A stretch of 41,565 nt of DNA from an uncultured archaeon (GTDB taxonomy: Archaea; Aenigmatarchaeota; Aenigmatarchaeia; Aenigmatarchaeales; Aenigmatarchaeaceae). The position numbers and the translations under genes were made by a program. The first letter of the stretch is position 1. The number at the start of each line of letters is the position of its first letter. This document shows positions 5,599 to 11,468 of the stretch, one piece after another. The notes below the pieces were generated by a model that was not told the origin of the DNA, made no database searches, and saw nothing but the letters and a program-made list of their open reading frames with translations. The DNA lies in the NCBI GenBank assembly GCA_964651405.1, contig CAZYZB010000002.1:1-41565 (forward strand), written 5' to 3'.

Positions 5599-7869
5599 TT
5601 ATCTCCAACTTACGTTCTTAACATACTTCCTAGCAATGTTAGCAAGCTTTTCCATTTCTTCATCGTTCTGCGTTTTCAATTTTTTCAATTTATTATCCAA
5701 AGCATTTTCAGGAAGGAACTTCTGTAAGACAAGTAAGTTAGCGTCTTTAACATATTTTGCAATCTCTTCTATGTCTTTTTCCGAATGTAAGCTTGGCACG
5801 ACAGTTGTCCTAAACTCATAGTCCAAGTCAGAGCACATTATCAATGAAATGCTTTTCTTTACATTTTCTATCATACCTTTGACATTTGTTACAGCTTCAT
5901 AACTGCTCTCTGTTAAAGGTGCCTTGATATCCATCGCAATCGAATCTATTAGTTTTTTGTCAATCAATTGCTTCAGCATCTCCGGGTTAGAACCGTTGGT
6001 ATAGATTCTTACTAGAAATCCCATTTTCTTTGTTTTCTTAATAAAATCAGGCAAGTCTTTATGCAAAGTCGGTTCCCCGCCTGAATTATGAAGTAGCAAT
6101 GAGCCAGTACCACCTACAAAAGAATGATTATTTGGTACAACTAAATCATAAACATATTCCGAATGCTTTAATTTTATCCTTTTAATTGATTTAATTTCTT
6201 TAATGTCCCAATTCTTGGTTAAATTATAGAGGAATTGAAGTCTTTTACTTTTACAAGTCACATTGCCTTTTTTTGTTAGAAAACCATGCCTTATTGCAAG
6301 AGCTTTTTGCTTATTGGTAAAGTTGTCCAAGCTTAACCATTTTTTAAGTTTTTCTCGAGCTAATCTTTTTTGACCTCTAAAAGCATAGCCGATAAGGGGT
6401 TTAGGTATTCCCGAAACTCTCGTATCAAACGTATAGAGCGTTTTAATTCTTTTTTCGATATTTAATTTATTCAAAGAATTTGATGATATAACAATTCTAA
6501 AAGATTTATTTTTCTCATCTTCCTCAAGCCAAGCAAATGCTCCAAGTGTTTTTGCCAAGAATATTACGTCTGCACAAAGACTGGGGCTTGAAGTTTTAAT
6601 TGAGAATTCTTGCTGTGATTTATCATGCCTTACTCTATGATGTCCGTCGCCTTCTGCTAATGCTTTTAAGAAAGCAATTTTGTTTTCATTTGCTGCGTTG
6701 AAAACGATTGTAGGGATATGCTTATTAATAAACCCCTTTCCAATCAATTCGCTTATAAATTTTGATATCAAAATGTTTCCAACGATTACGTCGTATTGTA
6801 CATTTTCATTTTTATGCTTTTCCATTATAGCTCCGGATTCAGATTTGAAAATATGATGATACAAATCAAGTATTTTTCTCGCTAAAGGTAATTCATTACC
6901 CAAACTAAACTGATAAGAACTTTCAACTCTTTTTTTGCTTTTTAAATACGTATATTTAGGGCATCCTTCTGCAGCAGCGTAACCTAGAAATCTGCATAGC
7001 TCTTCTGTTACAGGAATAAATCTAGGAATCTTAACCCTTGAAGTTTTATGCCTTATATCAGAATTTGTAACTATCCATTCCTCTAATAAATCCAGATTTC
7101 CTTTAAAAAAGTTTCTATACCTGCGAATTACACTACGCGTATGTCCGATTTCCCTGCTTAATTGAGATATAGATTTGTTTTCAAGCTGTTTGATTATTTG
7201 CTTCCAATACTTAATCCGCTTTTGTTTTGAGCTTTTATTTAATTCTATTACATCGCTCACATATTCTAGCAGATCAATTTTTTCAATATGTCCTGTGTTT
7301 TCAAGCATTTCGCCTTTAGGGCTGAGGACAAAATCTCCAATTTTAAGTTCATTTACTTTTTTTGAACACAAACCATCCTTTGTTAAGGTAAAAATGCTAT
7401 GAGCATTAGTTAATTTTATATTATAGTTTCCTGGGGTTGCTGTTATTTTCCAAAGTTCCTTTGTTTTATGTCTGATTATCTCTTTGGCCGGTTTAAATCC
7501 TTCTTTTGTTAAGCACTCAAAATCTACTGTCTGACATTCATATGTAATTGGTTCACGCTTTGCAGTTGTTTCTCTAGCTTCATCCCACAATTCTTTAATT
7601 GGAACATGCTTGAAAGTTTCACTATTTTTAATTATTACATGTTCATCACCAGCGATACTAAAAACAACAGCGTCAATCCATTTTTTCTGCTTTTCTAAGA
7701 ATCCAAAGACTTCCTTTTCATCAACATCTTTTATTTTGTCGCTCTCTAGTATAAGCTCTGGGTTAAAACAGAAAGAACATCTAAAATTACAGCTAGGTAA
7801 GAATATCATTGCAGCAATTTTTCCAGGATATTCGATGAATGTATTTTTTATAAAACCTTTTATTTTCAT
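5599..7869 (-). CDS. nrdG: Anaerobic RNR activating enzyme (radical SAM), interrupted by an intein
   Basis: CNFRCSFC radical-SAM cluster near the N-terminus. SGGEPTL and the rest of the activase resume after the intein. ATG 7867-7869 overlaps the upstream stop (ATGA), so the track's extra 15 N-terminal aa are probably not translated. Confidence 0.8.
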   Translation of the reverse strand: MKIKGFIKNTFIEYPGKIAAMIFLPSCNFRCSFCFNPELILESDKIKDVDEKEVFGFLEKQKKWIDAVVFSIAGDEHVIIKNSETFKHVPIKELWDEARETTAKREPITYECQTVDFECLTKEGFKPAKEIIRHKTKELWKITATPGNYNIKLTNAHSIFTLTKDGLCSKKVNELKIGDFVLSPKGEMLENTGHIEKIDLLEYVSDVIELNKSSKQKRIKYWKQIIKQLENKSISQLSREIGHTRSVIRRYRNFFKGNLDLLEEWIVTNSDIRHKTSRVKIPRFIPVTEELCRFLGYAAAEGCPKYTYLKSKKRVESSYQFSLGNELPLARKILDLYHHIFKSESGAIMEKHKNENVQYDVIVGNILISKFISELIGKGFINKHIPTIVFNAANENKIAFLKALAEGDGHHRVRHDKSQQEFSIKTSSPSLCADVIFLAKTLGAFAWLEEDEKNKSFRIVISSNSLNKLNIEKRIKTLYTFDTRVSGIPKPLIGYAFRGQKRLAREKLKKWLSLDNFTNKQKALAIRHGFLTKKGNVTCKSKRLQFLYNLTKNWDIKEIKSIKRIKLKHSEYVYDLVVPNNHSFVGGTGSLLLHNSGGEPTLHKDLPDFIKKTKKMGFLVRIYTNGSNPEMLKQLIDKKLIDSIAMDIKAPLTESSYEAVTNVKGMIENVKKSISLIMCSDLDYEFRTTVVPSLHSEKDIEEIAKYVKDANLLVLQKFLPENALDNKLKKLKTQNDEEMEKLANIARKYVKNVSWR
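6085..7659 (-). mobile_element. 525-aa intein with LAGLIDADG homing endonuclease inside nrdG
   Basis: Inserted between ...DAVVF and SGGEPTL. Starts SIAGDEHVII (block A) and has TNAH (block B). Two LAGLIDADG motifs (LGYAAAEGC, LKALAEGDGH). Ends YVYDLVVPNNHSFVGG...LLLHN followed by Ser. Confidence 0.8.
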
Positions 7870-8114
7870 AGAAAATCTTTTATATCTTTTAAATCTGGGA
7901 CGTCTCCATACCAAGCAGCTTTTTTCTCTCCGTCATCAACAATGACAATAGATGGGGTCGATAATACATCATAAAACAAAGACTCGGAAAGACCATCAAC
8001 TTCCTTTACGTTAAATAGTTCGACTTCTAGTCCATCTTTCTTTAGCTTCTCTCCAAGTTCCTTTGCTTGTGGGCACTTGGGGCATTCAGGTTGCCAAAAT
8101 ATTTTGATTTGCAT
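7866..8114 (-). CDS. Glutaredoxin/NrdH-like thioredoxin-fold redoxin
   Basis: 82 aa with a CPKC redox motif. Sits between nrdD and nrdG and overlaps both. Confidence 0.7.
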   Translation of the reverse strand: MQIKIFWQPECPKCPQAKELGEKLKKDGLEVELFNVKEVDGLSESLFYDVLSTPSIVIVDDGEKKAAWYGDVPDLKDIKDFL

Positions 8115-10767
8115 TTATAACACCATAGTTTCCTTTTTGTCTGTCTTTGAATTCTCCTTGCTTGCTTTTTATCCAACCTTCAAATTCCCTTCCATCTTTC
8201 TTTCCGCCAATTATTGAATAGTATCCGACGACTCTACTGATACCATAAATATTGTCGCTGCCGCAGAATTTGCAATTGGCCTCATCGCTTCTCTTGTATC
8301 CTAATGAAACTTTCTTGCAATCATCGCATACTGTGAATTCAGGCGAGAAGACTATTTGAGCAGATTGTGTGTTATCCCATGTTTTTTTGACTAGATTTGC
8401 TATAGAGTTTGCATCAGGTAAATGTTCGCCTACAAACAAGTGAGTTATTGAACCAGACTCTATTAGAGAATTAAACTTTCCTTGCTTGTCTATTCTTTCA
8501 ATTATTGATAACGGTGCATCTGGTGCAAAATGTATGCTGTTCGTATAATATACTTCTCCATTTTCCATGTTCCCTCTTATGTAATTCTTTGCCTCAGGGT
8601 ATTTTACCATGTCAAGCTTTGCAAGTCTTAATGAGGTGCTTTCTGCAGGGGTCTCTTCAAGAGTGAATTTAACTCCTAGTTGTTTTTCAAGTTCTTTGCA
8701 TTTGAAATACATCGCTGAAATGATCTTTAGTCCTGTTTTGTATGCTTCATCACTTTCATGGAGTTCCTGTCCTGTGACTCTTTTAACACACTCATTAAGA
8801 CCAATCAGTCCTATGATGTGTGTTACCTTTTCTAAGTCAACATAAGGCTTTCCATCAGGGGTTGCCATACCTAATTGCCAAAGTGGAGCGCCAGGTTGGC
8901 TAGATATTTTTCTTATAAAGGTCTTCTTTTGCAAGTGTGCCTTTGCAGCAGTATCCATAGTTTTCCTTATTTCTTCAATTGTTTTATCCAAATCACCTTC
9001 AGCTCTATATGCTGCTTGTGGCAAGTTCAATGTTACATTCAAGAAACCACAAAATCGCATAGACTCTGGGTGCTGTATCATATAGTTGTCAGTTATTTTT
9101 GTTTTAAGTCTGCAGCATTGGCTTAATGTTGCATCCTCTCTATCAAAAACAAAATATGTTGCTCCATTAGCAGAAGAGACTTTGCATGCAAAATTAAACA
9201 ATTCATTTTGCTTTGGGTCAGTGAAAGTTTCATTGTTAATATGTAAGTTGAATTTTGGAAAGGGAAATGGCTTTCCATCAGAGTCGCCAGCCATCCAGAC
9301 TTCCATCATTGCTTTTGCAAATGATTGTGCTTCGTGTTCAAAATCACTATAAGTTAGAATCCTTCCCTCTTTTGGCTGGATTAGATCTCCTTTTTCATCT
9401 CTTGGAACATCATCTAAATACTTTATCGAGCCATCTGGCATTTTATGCATATATTTCCCGCCAGCTCCTATAGCTGGCACGTTCTTAAGATAAGAAGGGG
9501 TTCCTAGATGGATGTTAAAGTCTATAAACAAAGTCTGACCACCTCTTGAAAATGCATTCTGAGAGCATGAGAAAATTAAATACTGAGCTTCTTGTTTCAT
9601 TCTCTTATAATCATATCCTACGAGTAGCGGCGCATAGAATATGTTTATGTAAGCAAGGCCCAAAGCTCCTGCATAATAAGCTTGCATAGAAGCTAAGAAG
9701 GTGTTTATATGGCCCGTCAATGTGCCAGCATACTTTGCTGGTGTAGATGCAGTTGATAAATTCAATAATCTTAATCCATATTTTTTCAAATACTCAGGCG
9801 AGTGCGCTGAGCAATAAACTCTTATAGGCATTCCTAGGTTGTGTATGTGTATTGCTCCACCCATATGCGCATCAGCTACGTCCTTAGAAAATATTTCTTT
9901 TAATGCATACTGTTTAAGTATGACCTCAGCTATTTCCATGTTAACTGCTTCTGGGTTGTTTGCAGCAATGTTGCTGTTTTCATTGCTTTTTGTGAAAATT
10001 ATTTGATTCAAATTAAAGCTTGGTATTCCAAGGGTTTGTTGTTTTTCCAGCTTCTTTCCAAGTCCTCTCTCAAAAAGTTCATTATCAACTAGCTCTCTCA
10101 CCAAGCTTACTGTGATTGTTTTCATCCCAGAGCCCAGGACTTTCTTTTCAACTGATACTGCTATACTTTCAGCTTCTTCCTTAGTGATTCCAGTCTCGTT
10201 CATTAAGGCTTCTATTATTTTTTGTCTATCCCACTTGGAAGTTAACCCTTGAGTTGGTGCTGAAACAAACAAGTGGATATCAGTAGAATCCTTTGTTTGC
10301 TCTTCTGATATGACGTTTACTGCATCTAAAGACTTTTGGAAAGATGTTATGTCTGTAAAAGACTTGTAGTAAGATGCAAACCTTACATAAGCAACCTCAT
10401 TTATTTCCTTAAGTTTTTTCATTACCATGTCTCCTAAAACAGTTGCAGCTACTTCTTCCTGGCCAAATGACCTTACTTCAGCTTCTATGTCGTCTACGAG
10501 CTTTTCAATTGTTTTATAAGAAACAGGGAGCTTTTCACAAGCTCTTATAACACCTTTCTTTATCTTGTCTTTGCTGAAGGATTCTCTTCTTCCATCTTTT
10601 TTGACAACTACCATATCTTCGACTTCTACTTTTTCAAATGTTGTAAATCTTCTTCCACATTTTAAGCATTCTCTACGCCTTTTATTGGCACCTAATTCCT
10701 CATCTTTTCTTTTATCAATGACTCTGGTATTACTAGAAGAGCAAAATGGGCATTTCAAGCTAATCAC
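8086..10767 (-). CDS. nrdD: Class III anaerobic ribonucleoside-triphosphate reductase with a fused NrdR-like N-terminus
   Basis: 893 aa. Residues 1-150 are NrdR-like: a CPFC...CLKCGRRFTTFE Zn ribbon plus an ATP-cone ending VAYVRFASYY. This is followed by a second ATP-cone and the class III core. The C-terminus has a CDDC...CKFCG Zn site and the glycyl-radical motif RVVGYY. Confidence 0.9.
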   Translation of the reverse strand: MISLKCPFCSSSNTRVIDKRKDEELGANKRRRECLKCGRRFTTFEKVEVEDMVVVKKDGRRESFSKDKIKKGVIRACEKLPVSYKTIEKLVDDIEAEVRSFGQEEVAATVLGDMVMKKLKEINEVAYVRFASYYKSFTDITSFQKSLDAVNVISEEQTKDSTDIHLFVSAPTQGLTSKWDRQKIIEALMNETGITKEEAESIAVSVEKKVLGSGMKTITVSLVRELVDNELFERGLGKKLEKQQTLGIPSFNLNQIIFTKSNENSNIAANNPEAVNMEIAEVILKQYALKEIFSKDVADAHMGGAIHIHNLGMPIRVYCSAHSPEYLKKYGLRLLNLSTASTPAKYAGTLTGHINTFLASMQAYYAGALGLAYINIFYAPLLVGYDYKRMKQEAQYLIFSCSQNAFSRGGQTLFIDFNIHLGTPSYLKNVPAIGAGGKYMHKMPDGSIKYLDDVPRDEKGDLIQPKEGRILTYSDFEHEAQSFAKAMMEVWMAGDSDGKPFPFPKFNLHINNETFTDPKQNELFNFACKVSSANGATYFVFDREDATLSQCCRLKTKITDNYMIQHPESMRFCGFLNVTLNLPQAAYRAEGDLDKTIEEIRKTMDTAAKAHLQKKTFIRKISSQPGAPLWQLGMATPDGKPYVDLEKVTHIIGLIGLNECVKRVTGQELHESDEAYKTGLKIISAMYFKCKELEKQLGVKFTLEETPAESTSLRLAKLDMVKYPEAKNYIRGNMENGEVYYTNSIHFAPDAPLSIIERIDKQGKFNSLIESGSITHLFVGEHLPDANSIANLVKKTWDNTQSAQIVFSPEFTVCDDCKKVSLGYKRSDEANCKFCGSDNIYGISRVVGYYSIIGGKKDGREFEGWIKSKQGEFKDRQKGNYGVINANQNILAT

Positions 10768-10776
10768 ACCTTAATA

Positions 10777-10792
10777 ACACAAGATGTTGTGT
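10777..10792. promoter_or_regulatory. NrdR-box-like palindrome 1
   Basis: ACACAAGATGTTGTGT, a 16-bp palindrome 10 nt upstream of the nrdD start codon. It fits the bacterial NrdR-box pattern acaCwAtATaTwGtgt, recalled from the literature. Confidence 0.5.
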
Positions 10793-10807: not shown

Positions 10808-10823
10808 ACACAAGTAATAGATT
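10808..10823. promoter_or_regulatory. NrdR-box-like element 2 (half-site only)
   Basis: ACACAAGTAATAGATT. The ACACAA half-site is conserved and the element starts exactly 31 nt from box 1, the usual tandem-box phasing. Confidence 0.3.
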
Positions 10824-10922
10824 ACTATTACTAAACATTTATATAGTTTTAGGTATTATACAACATATTTTTCCTCTGGAAATATCAAAATGTTTATTAA
10901 TATTGAAATTAAATAAAAAATT

Positions 10923-11468
10923 ATGCGTGCATTTCTAGGCATATCAATTCCAAATGAATTAAAGCCAAGAATAGAAGCAATCCAAGACAGATTTTCTGAT
11001 TTTGATATCAAGTTCGTTGAAAGAGAAAACTTGCATTTTAACTTGAAGTTCTTTGAGGAAATAAGCGATGAAGACGTTGAAAAAGTAAAGAAAGCTGTAG
11101 AAGACATTTTTAAGCAATTTCAACCTTTCGAAATAAAAATAACAGGAGTAGGAGCTTTCCCAAATAATAGCTATGTAAGAGTTATTTGGTTAGGAGTAAA
11201 AGAAGGCTATCAAACCCTAGCTTCGTTAGCTGAAATGATAGAAAATGCATTAGAATCTTTAGGTTTTGAAAGCAAAGAAAAGTTCGTACCTCATTTGACT
11301 TTAGGCAGAGTAAGATCAGGAAGAAATAAGAATGAGATGATAGTCCTTCTAAAGGAATTAGAAGACATAGAAGTTGGTAAAATGATGATAAATAGAATTA
11401 CAATGTTTCAATCTAAGCTATCTTCTAACGGGCCTGTATATGAAGAAGTATTTAGCATTAAAATCTAA
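10923..11468 (+). CDS. thpR: 2'-5' RNA ligase / 2H phosphoesterase (ThpR/LigT)
   Basis: 181 aa with the two 2H-family motifs HFNLKF and HLTLGR. Confidence 0.8.
   Translation: MRAFLGISIPNELKPRIEAIQDRFSDFDIKFVERENLHFNLKFFEEISDEDVEKVKKAVEDIFKQFQPFEIKITGVGAFPNNSYVRVIWLGVKEGYQTLASLAEMIENALESLGFESKEKFVPHLTLGRVRSGRNKNEMIVLLKELEDIEVGKMMINRITMFQSKLSSNGPVYEEVFSIKI

Follow-up and report, generated by a model that had tools for sequence, protein, structure and literature searches.

Trigger enzymes such as PutA, BirA and NadR combine a metabolic enzyme with a DNA-binding domain and repress genes of their own pathway in response to a pathway metabolite. To our knowledge, no trigger enzyme has been described for ribonucleotide reduction, nor has one of this kind been described in archaea. 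In the present work, we analyzed a 41,565-nucleotide (nt) stretch of DNA (hereafter, the window) from an uncultured archaeon (Aenigmatarchaeota; Aenigmatarchaeaceae), which corresponds to positions 1–41,565 of the forward strand of contig CAZYZB010000002.1 in assembly GCA_964651405.1. Within it, a fused nrdR-nrdD gene encodes in one polypeptide a class III (anaerobic) ribonucleotide reductase (RNR), NrdD, together with its own NrdR repressor, and, judging from the sequences of the protein and its promoter, the product is probably an autorepressing trigger enzyme gated by dATP/ATP. As in PutA, BirA and NadR, an enzyme and a sequence-specific DNA-binding domain occur in a single polypeptide, and repression in response to a pathway metabolite, characteristic of those proteins, is suggested here by an operator in the gene's own promoter and an intact ATP/dATP-sensing cone. 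Unlike in those proteins, which have unrelated folds, the regulatory half is a complete member of an otherwise free-standing repressor family.

Stand-alone NrdR proteins have been solved from E. coli (9FVR, 9GEX) and S. coelicolor (7P37, 7P3F), and the NrdR module studied here has in common with them the Zn-ribbon, the ATP-cone and the C-terminal helix-loop-helix, as well as the DNA-contacting and nucleotide-binding residues. In NrdR, DNA is contacted by R12, D15, R17, R26–R29 and R37, and nucleotide is bound, in S. coelicolor numbering, by K50, R51, E56, K62, F124 and Y128 (PMC9110341). With ATP only, NrdR forms oligomers that do not bind DNA, while loading with both ATP and dATP leads to a tetramer in which two Zn-ribbon pairs, separated by 80 Å, bind two boxes spaced by three helical turns and sharply bend the DNA (PMC9110341). 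As with S. coelicolor nrdRJ, the RNR operon described here contains the repressor's own gene, and its promoter carries a 16-bp palindromic box pair with a spacing of 31–32 bp. It differs from stand-alone NrdR in that the repressor is covalently joined to the enzyme it would regulate, which fixes the repressor-to-enzyme stoichiometry at 1:1, and in its archaeal host with a TATA/TFB promoter, in whose genome no other boxed gene was found. NrdR has been called rare or absent in archaea in the literature.

On the enzyme side, the locus resembles that of Prevotella copri NrdD (8P23; PMC11226230), since in both cases a class III RNR bears a nucleotide-sensing cone at its N-terminus and the nrdG activase gene comes next. 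Unlike in P. copri, however, the native NrdD cone is degenerate, and the functional cone is that of the NrdR module, accompanied by a Zn-ribbon and C-terminal helices. Closer to the host, nrdR-nrdD-nrdG and nrdR-nrdJ operons of the same family (genomes G068 and G129) have the same gene order and the same box pair upstream of nrdR, but their genes are separate (4 nt apart), their NrdD retains a full cone (84.8 bits) and their NrdR belongs to a different clade. We found no mention of an NrdR-RNR fusion in the literature searched, which included a 2022 analysis of RNR extensions (PMC9669993).

Architecture and spread of the fused protein

The fused gene and its parts were delimited as follows. 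Residues are numbered from the TTG start codon unless numbering along the 893-amino acid (aa) open reading frame (ORF) is stated, and AF2 denotes the AlphaFold2 model.

8086..10758, minus strand: fused nrdR-nrdD gene, 890 aa from a conserved TTG (Pfam, NCBIfam, alignment with relatives)
10624..10758, minus strand: NrdR Zn-ribbon, residues 1–45 (CPFC...KRRRECLKCGRRFTTFE; PF22811, 56.6 bits)
10324..10623, minus strand: NrdR ATP-cone and C-terminal helix-loop-helix, residues 46–145 (TIGR00244; AF2 helices)
10270..10323, minus strand: flexible linker, approximately residues 146–163 (AF2; its length varies in the alignment)
9982..10269, minus strand: degenerate second ATP-cone and connector (25.7 bits; AF2)
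8134..9981, minus strand: NrdD catalytic body with the SRVVGYY glycyl-radical motif and a C-terminal CxxC...CxxC (PF13597, TIGR02487)

The whole ORF (8086..10767, minus strand) comprises 893 aa from a GTG codon and contains neither stops nor frameshifts. This bears out the initial annotation, according to which a complete NrdR module (placed at 10318–10767) is fused in frame to NrdD with no stop between them. In line with this, both NCBIfam equivalog models were matched above their cut-offs. TIGR00244 (NrdR) scored 174.2 bits with the whole protein and 180.1 bits with residues 1–160, the fragment for which a profile search had been proposed (cut-off 124.65), and its match covered model positions 1–145 of 147; TIGR02487 (NrdD) scored 364.2 bits (cut-off 326.35). 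Pfam assigned, in 893-aa numbering, Zn_ribbon_NrdR to residues 4–45 (56.6 bits), NRDD to residues 263–878 (397.5 bits; the PF13597 match spans model positions 1–561 of 562) and two ATP-cone stretches, the best at 52–139. The first 144 residues aligned without gaps to the E. coli NrdR structures 9GEX and 9FVR (E = 6e-37), and the module also matched S. coelicolor 7P37 (E = 8e-27). By homology, the fusion protein is thus a member of the NrdR family with a non-canonical architecture: instead of the 150–200 aa usual for free-standing NrdR, the repressor is joined in frame to an NrdD of about 740 residues. The order along the protein is a complete NrdR, a disordered linker of approximately 20 residues, a degenerate ATP-cone and an intact NrdD.

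With regard to the start codon, a promoter alignment with four relatives (79–92% protein identity) showed that GTG at 10767 reads GTA or TCG in two of them, whereas TTG at 10758, which yields the usual NrdR N-terminus MKCPFC, is kept. TTG 10758 rather than GTG 10767 is therefore the likely start, and the NrdR module corresponds to 10324–10758.

Residues for DNA contact and for nucleotide binding were found in the module. The Zn-ribbon cysteines (C3, C6, C31 and C34) and the DNA-contact residues (R12, D15, R17, K26, R27–R29 and R37) are all there. The ATP-cone contains V51, K53, K54, E59, F61, K65, F127 and Y131 as nucleotide-binding residues; V48, K50, R51, E56, K62, F124 and Y128 of the S. 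coelicolor protein correspond to V51, K53, K54, E59, K65, F127 and Y131. Of the residues named in PMC9110341, two alone differ, each by a conservative exchange to lysine (R26 and R51), and from these residues the NrdR cone is predicted to be able to bind nucleotide. The AF2 model, whose mean predicted local distance difference test (pLDDT) score is 79, places the C-terminal NrdR helices at 124–134 and 140–149 and gives a pLDDT of only 28–48 across residues 145–166 (893-aa numbering), as for a disordered tether.

The second cone proved to be of a different kind. According to the initial annotation, the cone native to NrdD occurs here as a second copy; a cone-like region does occur there, but it is a degenerate remnant, which on its own scored 25.7 bits against a cut-off of 25.8 and matched profile positions 11–71 of 88 only. 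It retains the hairpin and four-helix fold (AF2: E167-170, E175-178, H181-233) and is devoid of the VxKRDG..E hairpin residues (K, R and E) that hold the nucleotide; the family consensus likewise lacks KRDG. The remainder of the NrdD half is, judged by its motifs, an intact enzyme. Its SRVVGYY aligned to RIVGY, the glycyl-radical motif of T. maritima NrdD (4COI), whose catalytic body is the closest among solved structures, and is preceded by CDDC...CKFC, a Cys4 Zn-site motif. A candidate for the finger-loop stretch with the thiyl-radical cysteine, C551-C552-R553-L554, is invariant in 59 homologues and lies in a loop outside the pairwise alignment to solved NrdDs.

The initial annotation had further suggested a survey of NrdD N-terminal architectures in archaea. 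At least 95 proteins of the same architecture (29–100% identity) were found, which come, where the sources name them, from five archaeal groups: Aenigmatarchaeota, Bathyarchaeia, the Asgard group, Micrarchaeia and Woesearchaeota. Specifically, residues 1–260 used as the query in a word-indexed search gave 251 matches, and 95 of the 120 listed have an N-terminal Zn-ribbon and a length of at least 760 aa. The fused proteins came from JGI, ENA, NCBI and Logan assemblies; the 260 N-terminal residues are identical in four protein clusters on different contigs (7.5 to 186 kb), and dozens of same-length proteins share 79–92% identity. Annotation pipelines see both domains, as the JGI product names of some relatives show. 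Among the matches listed from a search of genome contigs, most were bacterial free NrdRs (43–56% identity), and one was a further archaeal fusion with full coverage (L070).

In an alignment of 59 fused proteins (29–91% identical to that of the window), R17, R27–R29, C31, C34, R37, K53 and K65 are invariant, and C3, P4, C6 and D15 are conserved in at least 90%. Ratios of non-synonymous to synonymous substitution rates (dN/dS) among five close relatives, which are approximate because dS is near saturation, were 0.044 for the Zn-ribbon and 0.045 for the NrdD body, compared to 0.097 for the NrdR cone and 0.10 for both the linker and the degenerate cone. Purifying selection thus acts on the Zn-ribbon as strongly as on the enzyme core.

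Across the phylum, TIGR00244 was matched above its cut-off in 132 of 301 genomes, mostly by free-standing proteins in open frames of 145–230 aa. At least 14 NrdR matches lay in frames of 670 aa or more, and 14 further sub-threshold matches (Zn-ribbon plus part of a cone) lay in frames of 536–1466 aa. A second TIGR00244 match was missing from 13 of the 14 fused-type genomes. At least three architectures were distinguished: A1, the type of the window (NrdR, degenerate cone, NrdD); A2 (NrdR, intact cone, NrdD), whose bodies are only about 30% identical to those of A1; and B, in which the Zn-ribbon and a single cone are joined without further parts to the enzyme, which is an NrdD in L050 and a class II RNR in L051.

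Several of these relatives had features of their own. L050 (G207:C18, 914-3241) and L049 (G193:C6) are NrdDs of about 775 aa with the Zn-ribbon directly on a single intact ATP-cone. The 903-aa protein of L051 (G003:C2, 1001-3712) consists of an NrdR Zn-ribbon, a single ATP-cone, a class II RNR and a C-terminal zinc finger, so the repressor finger has also been fused to a B12-type reductase; two strong boxes (19.5 and 21.6 bits) lie 31 bp apart upstream of it. The fused proteins of the Bathyarchaeia, Asgard and Micrarchaeia relatives have a reduced length (806–849 aa), and each is followed by a separate ORF of 68–82 aa matching PF13597 (L159 3974-4219, L160 3978-4226 and L161 4133-4339), which looks like a split-off glycyl-radical tail. 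Zn_ribbon_NrdR and ATP-cone were also found with unrelated domains, namely FtsZ/tubulin (PF00091), dCMP deaminase (PF00383), SHMT (PF00464), PF03706, DHH, M16 peptidase and AAA, in P0103, P0109–P0113, P0116 and P0118–P0120; these may be further NrdR fusions or gene-calling read-throughs.

Concerning the origin of the fusion, genomes of the same family encode nrdR, nrdD (full cone) and nrdG as separate genes, with a 4-nt gap between nrdR and nrdD, or alternatively nrdR followed after a 4-nt gap by a class II RNR. A recent loss of the stop codon in such a family operon was considered and rejected, as the NrdR module groups with the fused forms and the NrdD belongs to a different, degenerate-cone subfamily, in which the N-terminal cone is degenerate in unfused members as well. 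In the tree of NrdR domains, the module of the window nests among fused forms, and the six free NrdRs of the family form a well-supported clade of their own. Maximum parsimony gave 6 changes of state on this tree, compared to about 30 with shuffled labels; the fused forms may have had a single origin, with which the tree is compatible, but it is too short to count fusion events. Unfused NrdDs of the same subfamily occur in four genomes without NrdR (L154–L156 and L158; G280, G182, G127 and G019), and in these proteins roughly 100 conserved N-terminal residues (EDFYxxDKxNxxFW...) stand in the place of the NrdR module, ahead of the same degenerate cone.

A predicted NrdR operator in the promoter of the fused gene

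Four elements were recognized upstream of the TTG start codon:

10838..10845, minus strand: TATA-box-like TATATAAA, separated by 14 nt from the distal box downstream (sequence and alignment)
10808..10823, minus strand: distal NrdR half-box AATCTATTACTTGTGT, its centre 31 bp from that of the proximal box
10777..10792, minus strand: proximal NrdR box ACACAACATCTTGTGT, 24.1 bits, ending 4 nt before AAGGTG
10767..10772, minus strand: Shine-Dalgarno-like AAGGTG, 8 nt before TTG, conserved in relatives

On the gene strand, the order is TATATAAA, 14 nt, AATCTATTACTTGTGT, 15 nt, ACACAACATCTTGTGT, 4 nt, AAGGTG, 8 nt and TTG. The NrdR-box consensus reportedly given by Rodionov and Gelfand in 2005 is acaCwAtATaTwGtgt, and 14 of its 16 positions agree with the proximal box. 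Genome-wide, ACACWA-N4-TWGTGT has a single match, this box, with 0.1–0.35 matches expected. Further, a position weight matrix (PWM) was derived from 40 boxes in relatives, none of them from the window, and ranked the proximal box best (24.1 bits) over 783,602 genome positions; the runner-up scored 14.5 bits, and the other top sites examined (C5:6787, C20:2275, C9:21587 and C6:18162, including those of 13.8–14.5 bits) were all inside ORFs. The fused gene also provided the only genome-wide match to TIGR00244 (179.6 bits) and the only one to PF13597.

The distal element contains the right half of the palindrome only and scored −3.7 bits as a full palindrome. Since the TATA box is located 14 nt upstream, the transcription start is likely inside this element, so that the distal half-box probably overlaps it. 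Repressors that block polymerase recruitment in archaea usually sit at the transcription start.

A footprint alignment with close relatives revealed conserved islands in an otherwise diverged intergenic region. The core of the proximal box, CACAAYATCTTGT, is identical in five of five relatives, two of which vary at flanking positions; the distal half-box is kept in four of the five; AAGGTG and TTG are conserved; and the TATA element is kept as ACTATWTAAAT in three of four close relatives, P0017 being divergent. TATA-like motifs were also present at the matching place in other loci. Taken as a predicted operator, the strong box and the half-box head an nrdRD-trx-nrdG operon, between the TATA element and the ribosome-binding site.

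Similar operators were detected at related loci. Of the phylum's 13 full-length fused loci, most carry a box pair in the approximately 500 nt upstream, and the layout of a weak distal and a strong proximal box at 31–33 bp recurred in most relatives; the G144 locus has a single weak box only (10.7 bits), and the boxes of G030 are separated from the fused gene by a small ORF. Box pairs at 31–32 bp were also found in the Bathyarchaeia, Micrarchaeia and Woesearchaeota relatives, and one strong box in the Asgard relative. As a control, five nrdD loci were scored in genomes of the same phylum that lack NrdR, and none had a site above 4.5 bits. Boxes thus track NrdR, whether fused or free.

In the fused-type genomes of the phylum, the only boxed operon found was the fusion's own, and other pattern matches with one mismatch were all inside ORFs. 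A lone 23.5-bit box in L054 (G106:C1, 2038-2053) lies past the 3' end of a transposase-like ORF of 660 aa with no RNR adjoining, and was judged probably unrelated. In L163 (P0035, 1-1500), a class II-type RNR gene (ATP-cone, lgN, lgC) is divergent from a fused nrdR-nrdD, and the 317-bp intergenic region they share contains two NrdR-box pairs, one beside each gene, so that in this case a second RNR may be under the control of the fused protein.

Autorepression and its alternatives

With NrdR sites in the promoter of the very gene that encodes it, the enzyme most likely represses its own synthesis. By analogy with free NrdR, the following mechanism can be envisaged. An increase in dATP relative to ATP would lead the cones of NrdR to load ATP plus dATP, and four NrdR modules from two NrdD dimers would assemble into the DNA-binding tetramer, which the tether of approximately 20 residues makes plausible. 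This tetramer would clamp and bend both boxes over the transcription start and block the recruitment of RNA polymerase. If ATP alone were bound, the assemblies formed by the modules would have no affinity for DNA, and the operon would be transcribed. Transcription of the operon would in this way be set jointly by the concentration of the enzyme and the dATP/ATP ratio, as in a one-protein homeostat. The initial annotation had raised the possibility that the enzyme binds its own operator as a trigger enzyme, and this gains support, at the level of sequence comparison, from the sole NrdR of the genome, its genome-best box, the conserved operator, the lack of boxes at nrdD loci of NrdR-less genomes, the retained DNA-reading residues and the low dN/dS of the Zn-ribbon.

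Several observations weigh against autorepression. The promoter and the transcription start have been placed by inference, the distal box is a half-site only, and NrdR was characterized with bacterial RNA polymerase while the promoter here is of the archaeal TBP/TFB type. The C-terminal cargo of 740 residues might hinder the tetramer, octamer and dodecamer assemblies of free NrdR. In addition, an abundant enzyme that bears its repressor implies a very high repressor concentration, so that DNA binding would have to be either weak or under tight control by nucleotides. Of three short-form fusions examined, two (L049 and L050) had no box within 130 nt upstream. Finally, the class II RNR genes of five fused-type genomes (G043, G144, G172, G190 and G202) had no box above 3 bits, and the regulon may therefore be the fusion's own operon alone.

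An alternative explanation, close to the co-option of the ribbon for allosteric oligomerization that the initial annotation had suggested, is that the NrdR module serves allostery and oligomerization only, with an intact ATP-cone that stands in for the degenerate native one, a structural or dimerizing Zn-ribbon that has lost DNA binding and an operon controlled otherwise or not at all. The degeneration of the native cone in the clade, whereby a functional cone is 'needed', speaks for it, as do the regulation of P. copri NrdD activity by ATP-cones (PMC11226230), the pairing of Zn-ribbons in NrdR oligomers (PMC9110341) and the flexibility of the architecture evident from A2 fusions, which retain an intact second cone. 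We consider it unlikely, as it leaves unexplained why the only strong NrdR box pair of the genome lies in the gene's own promoter and why this operator is conserved in relatives and in other phyla with the fused protein as the only available NrdR homologue. Neither would a structural role account for the conservation of the base-reading D15 and R17 and the phosphate-contacting arginines at a dN/dS of 0.044. Less probable still is the production of free NrdR and free NrdD from the one frame, by proteolysis of the linker or internal initiation, which would restore an ordinary two-component system. A disordered, exposed linker (AF2) would allow for cleavage, and co-translation followed by separation would reproduce the situation of relatives with adjacent nrdR and nrdD genes. 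However, no protease site is known, the linker is itself subject to purifying selection (dN/dS of about 0.10), and its conserved motif DSTD..L.V runs on into the degenerate cone; an internal start was rejected because the linker contains no Met and no Shine-Dalgarno-like sequence precedes its only in-frame TTG. Moreover, the fused state has been kept down to 29% identity, although one stop codon would split the parts.

The last alternative, that assembly, sequencing or gene calling artificially joined adjacent nrdR and nrdD genes, takes its appeal from the same-family genomes in which the two are separated by 4 nt. It is effectively refuted already by the identical or near-identical fused ORFs of many independent assemblies, by the grouping of the NrdR module with other fused forms rather than with the free NrdRs of its own family, and by the different subfamilies to which the fused NrdD, with its degenerate cone, and the unfused NrdD of the family, with its full cone, belong.

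Autorepression, the reading we favour, could extend to the enzyme itself. On a more speculative note, oligomerization driven by the NrdR cone may also give allosteric on/off control, NrdD's own cone being dead. Tentatively, we regard it as possible, if rather doubtful, that one cone does both jobs, in such a way that repression of the operon and shut-off of the enzyme are a single physical event. The NrdR cone would then be the only dATP/ATP sensor of the clade, NrdD's own having decayed, and dATP-driven NrdR tetramers would cross-link two NrdD dimers and dock them on their own promoter, at the same time switching off or sequestering the enzyme (allosteric inhibition). The Zn-ribbon fusions of L050 and L051 would represent further stages of the same merger.

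Operon neighbours and significance

Two genes follow nrdRD on the same strand:

7866..8114, minus strand: thioredoxin-like gene, 82 aa (PF13192, 40.3 bits), overlapping the nrdD end and nrdG
5599..7914, minus strand: nrdG activase gene (radical SAM and Fer4_12) with a LAGLIDADG intein inside (Pfam)

The thioredoxin-like protein is probably the reductant of the operon. The same small redoxin was found between nrdD and nrdG in relatives from several phyla, and its placement suggests a class III RNR of the thioredoxin type rather than the formate type. The nrdG intein comprises about 525 codons (Intein_splicing 63 bits, LAGLIDADG_3 30 bits) and is a recent arrival, given that the NrdG at the same position in four close relatives is 231 aa long and contains no intein. 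In the opposite direction, a gene for a LigT-type 2',5'-RNA ligase/phosphoesterase (10923-11468, plus strand) is divergent from nrdRD, with which it has a 155-bp intergenic region in common, and this synteny is kept in four relatives.

The assembly comprises 784 kb in 50 contigs (34% G+C) and is approximately 90% complete. A class II-type RNR is represented in it by the C-terminal 72 residues only (C42:4317-4532, minus strand; PF02867 positions 486–523), at a contig end; the remainder of this gene, including its promoter, is missing from the assembly.

Taken as a whole, a bona fide NrdR and a bona fide NrdD, as judged by homology, occur in a covalent arrangement that is undescribed and predicts trigger-enzyme control. 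NrdR and the ATP-cone of RNRs are usually presented as separate uses of one mobile sensor, one in transcription and the other in enzyme activity. Here, repressor and enzyme are naturally joined and the predicted operator lies in the enzyme's own promoter, which makes the fusion a natural test case in which ATP/dATP-driven oligomerization could be read out on DNA and in catalysis at once. Free NrdR is notoriously unstable on purification, and the fused form might be better suited to structural work.

The finding possibly provides the first trigger enzyme of deoxyribonucleotide synthesis, and it would place a bacterial-type repressor at archaeal TATA promoters. The presence of NrdR in 132 of 301 genomes of this archaeal phylum also revises the stated distribution of the family. 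If one cone indeed does both jobs, DPANN and other archaea would constitute an unrecognized reservoir of NrdR biology.

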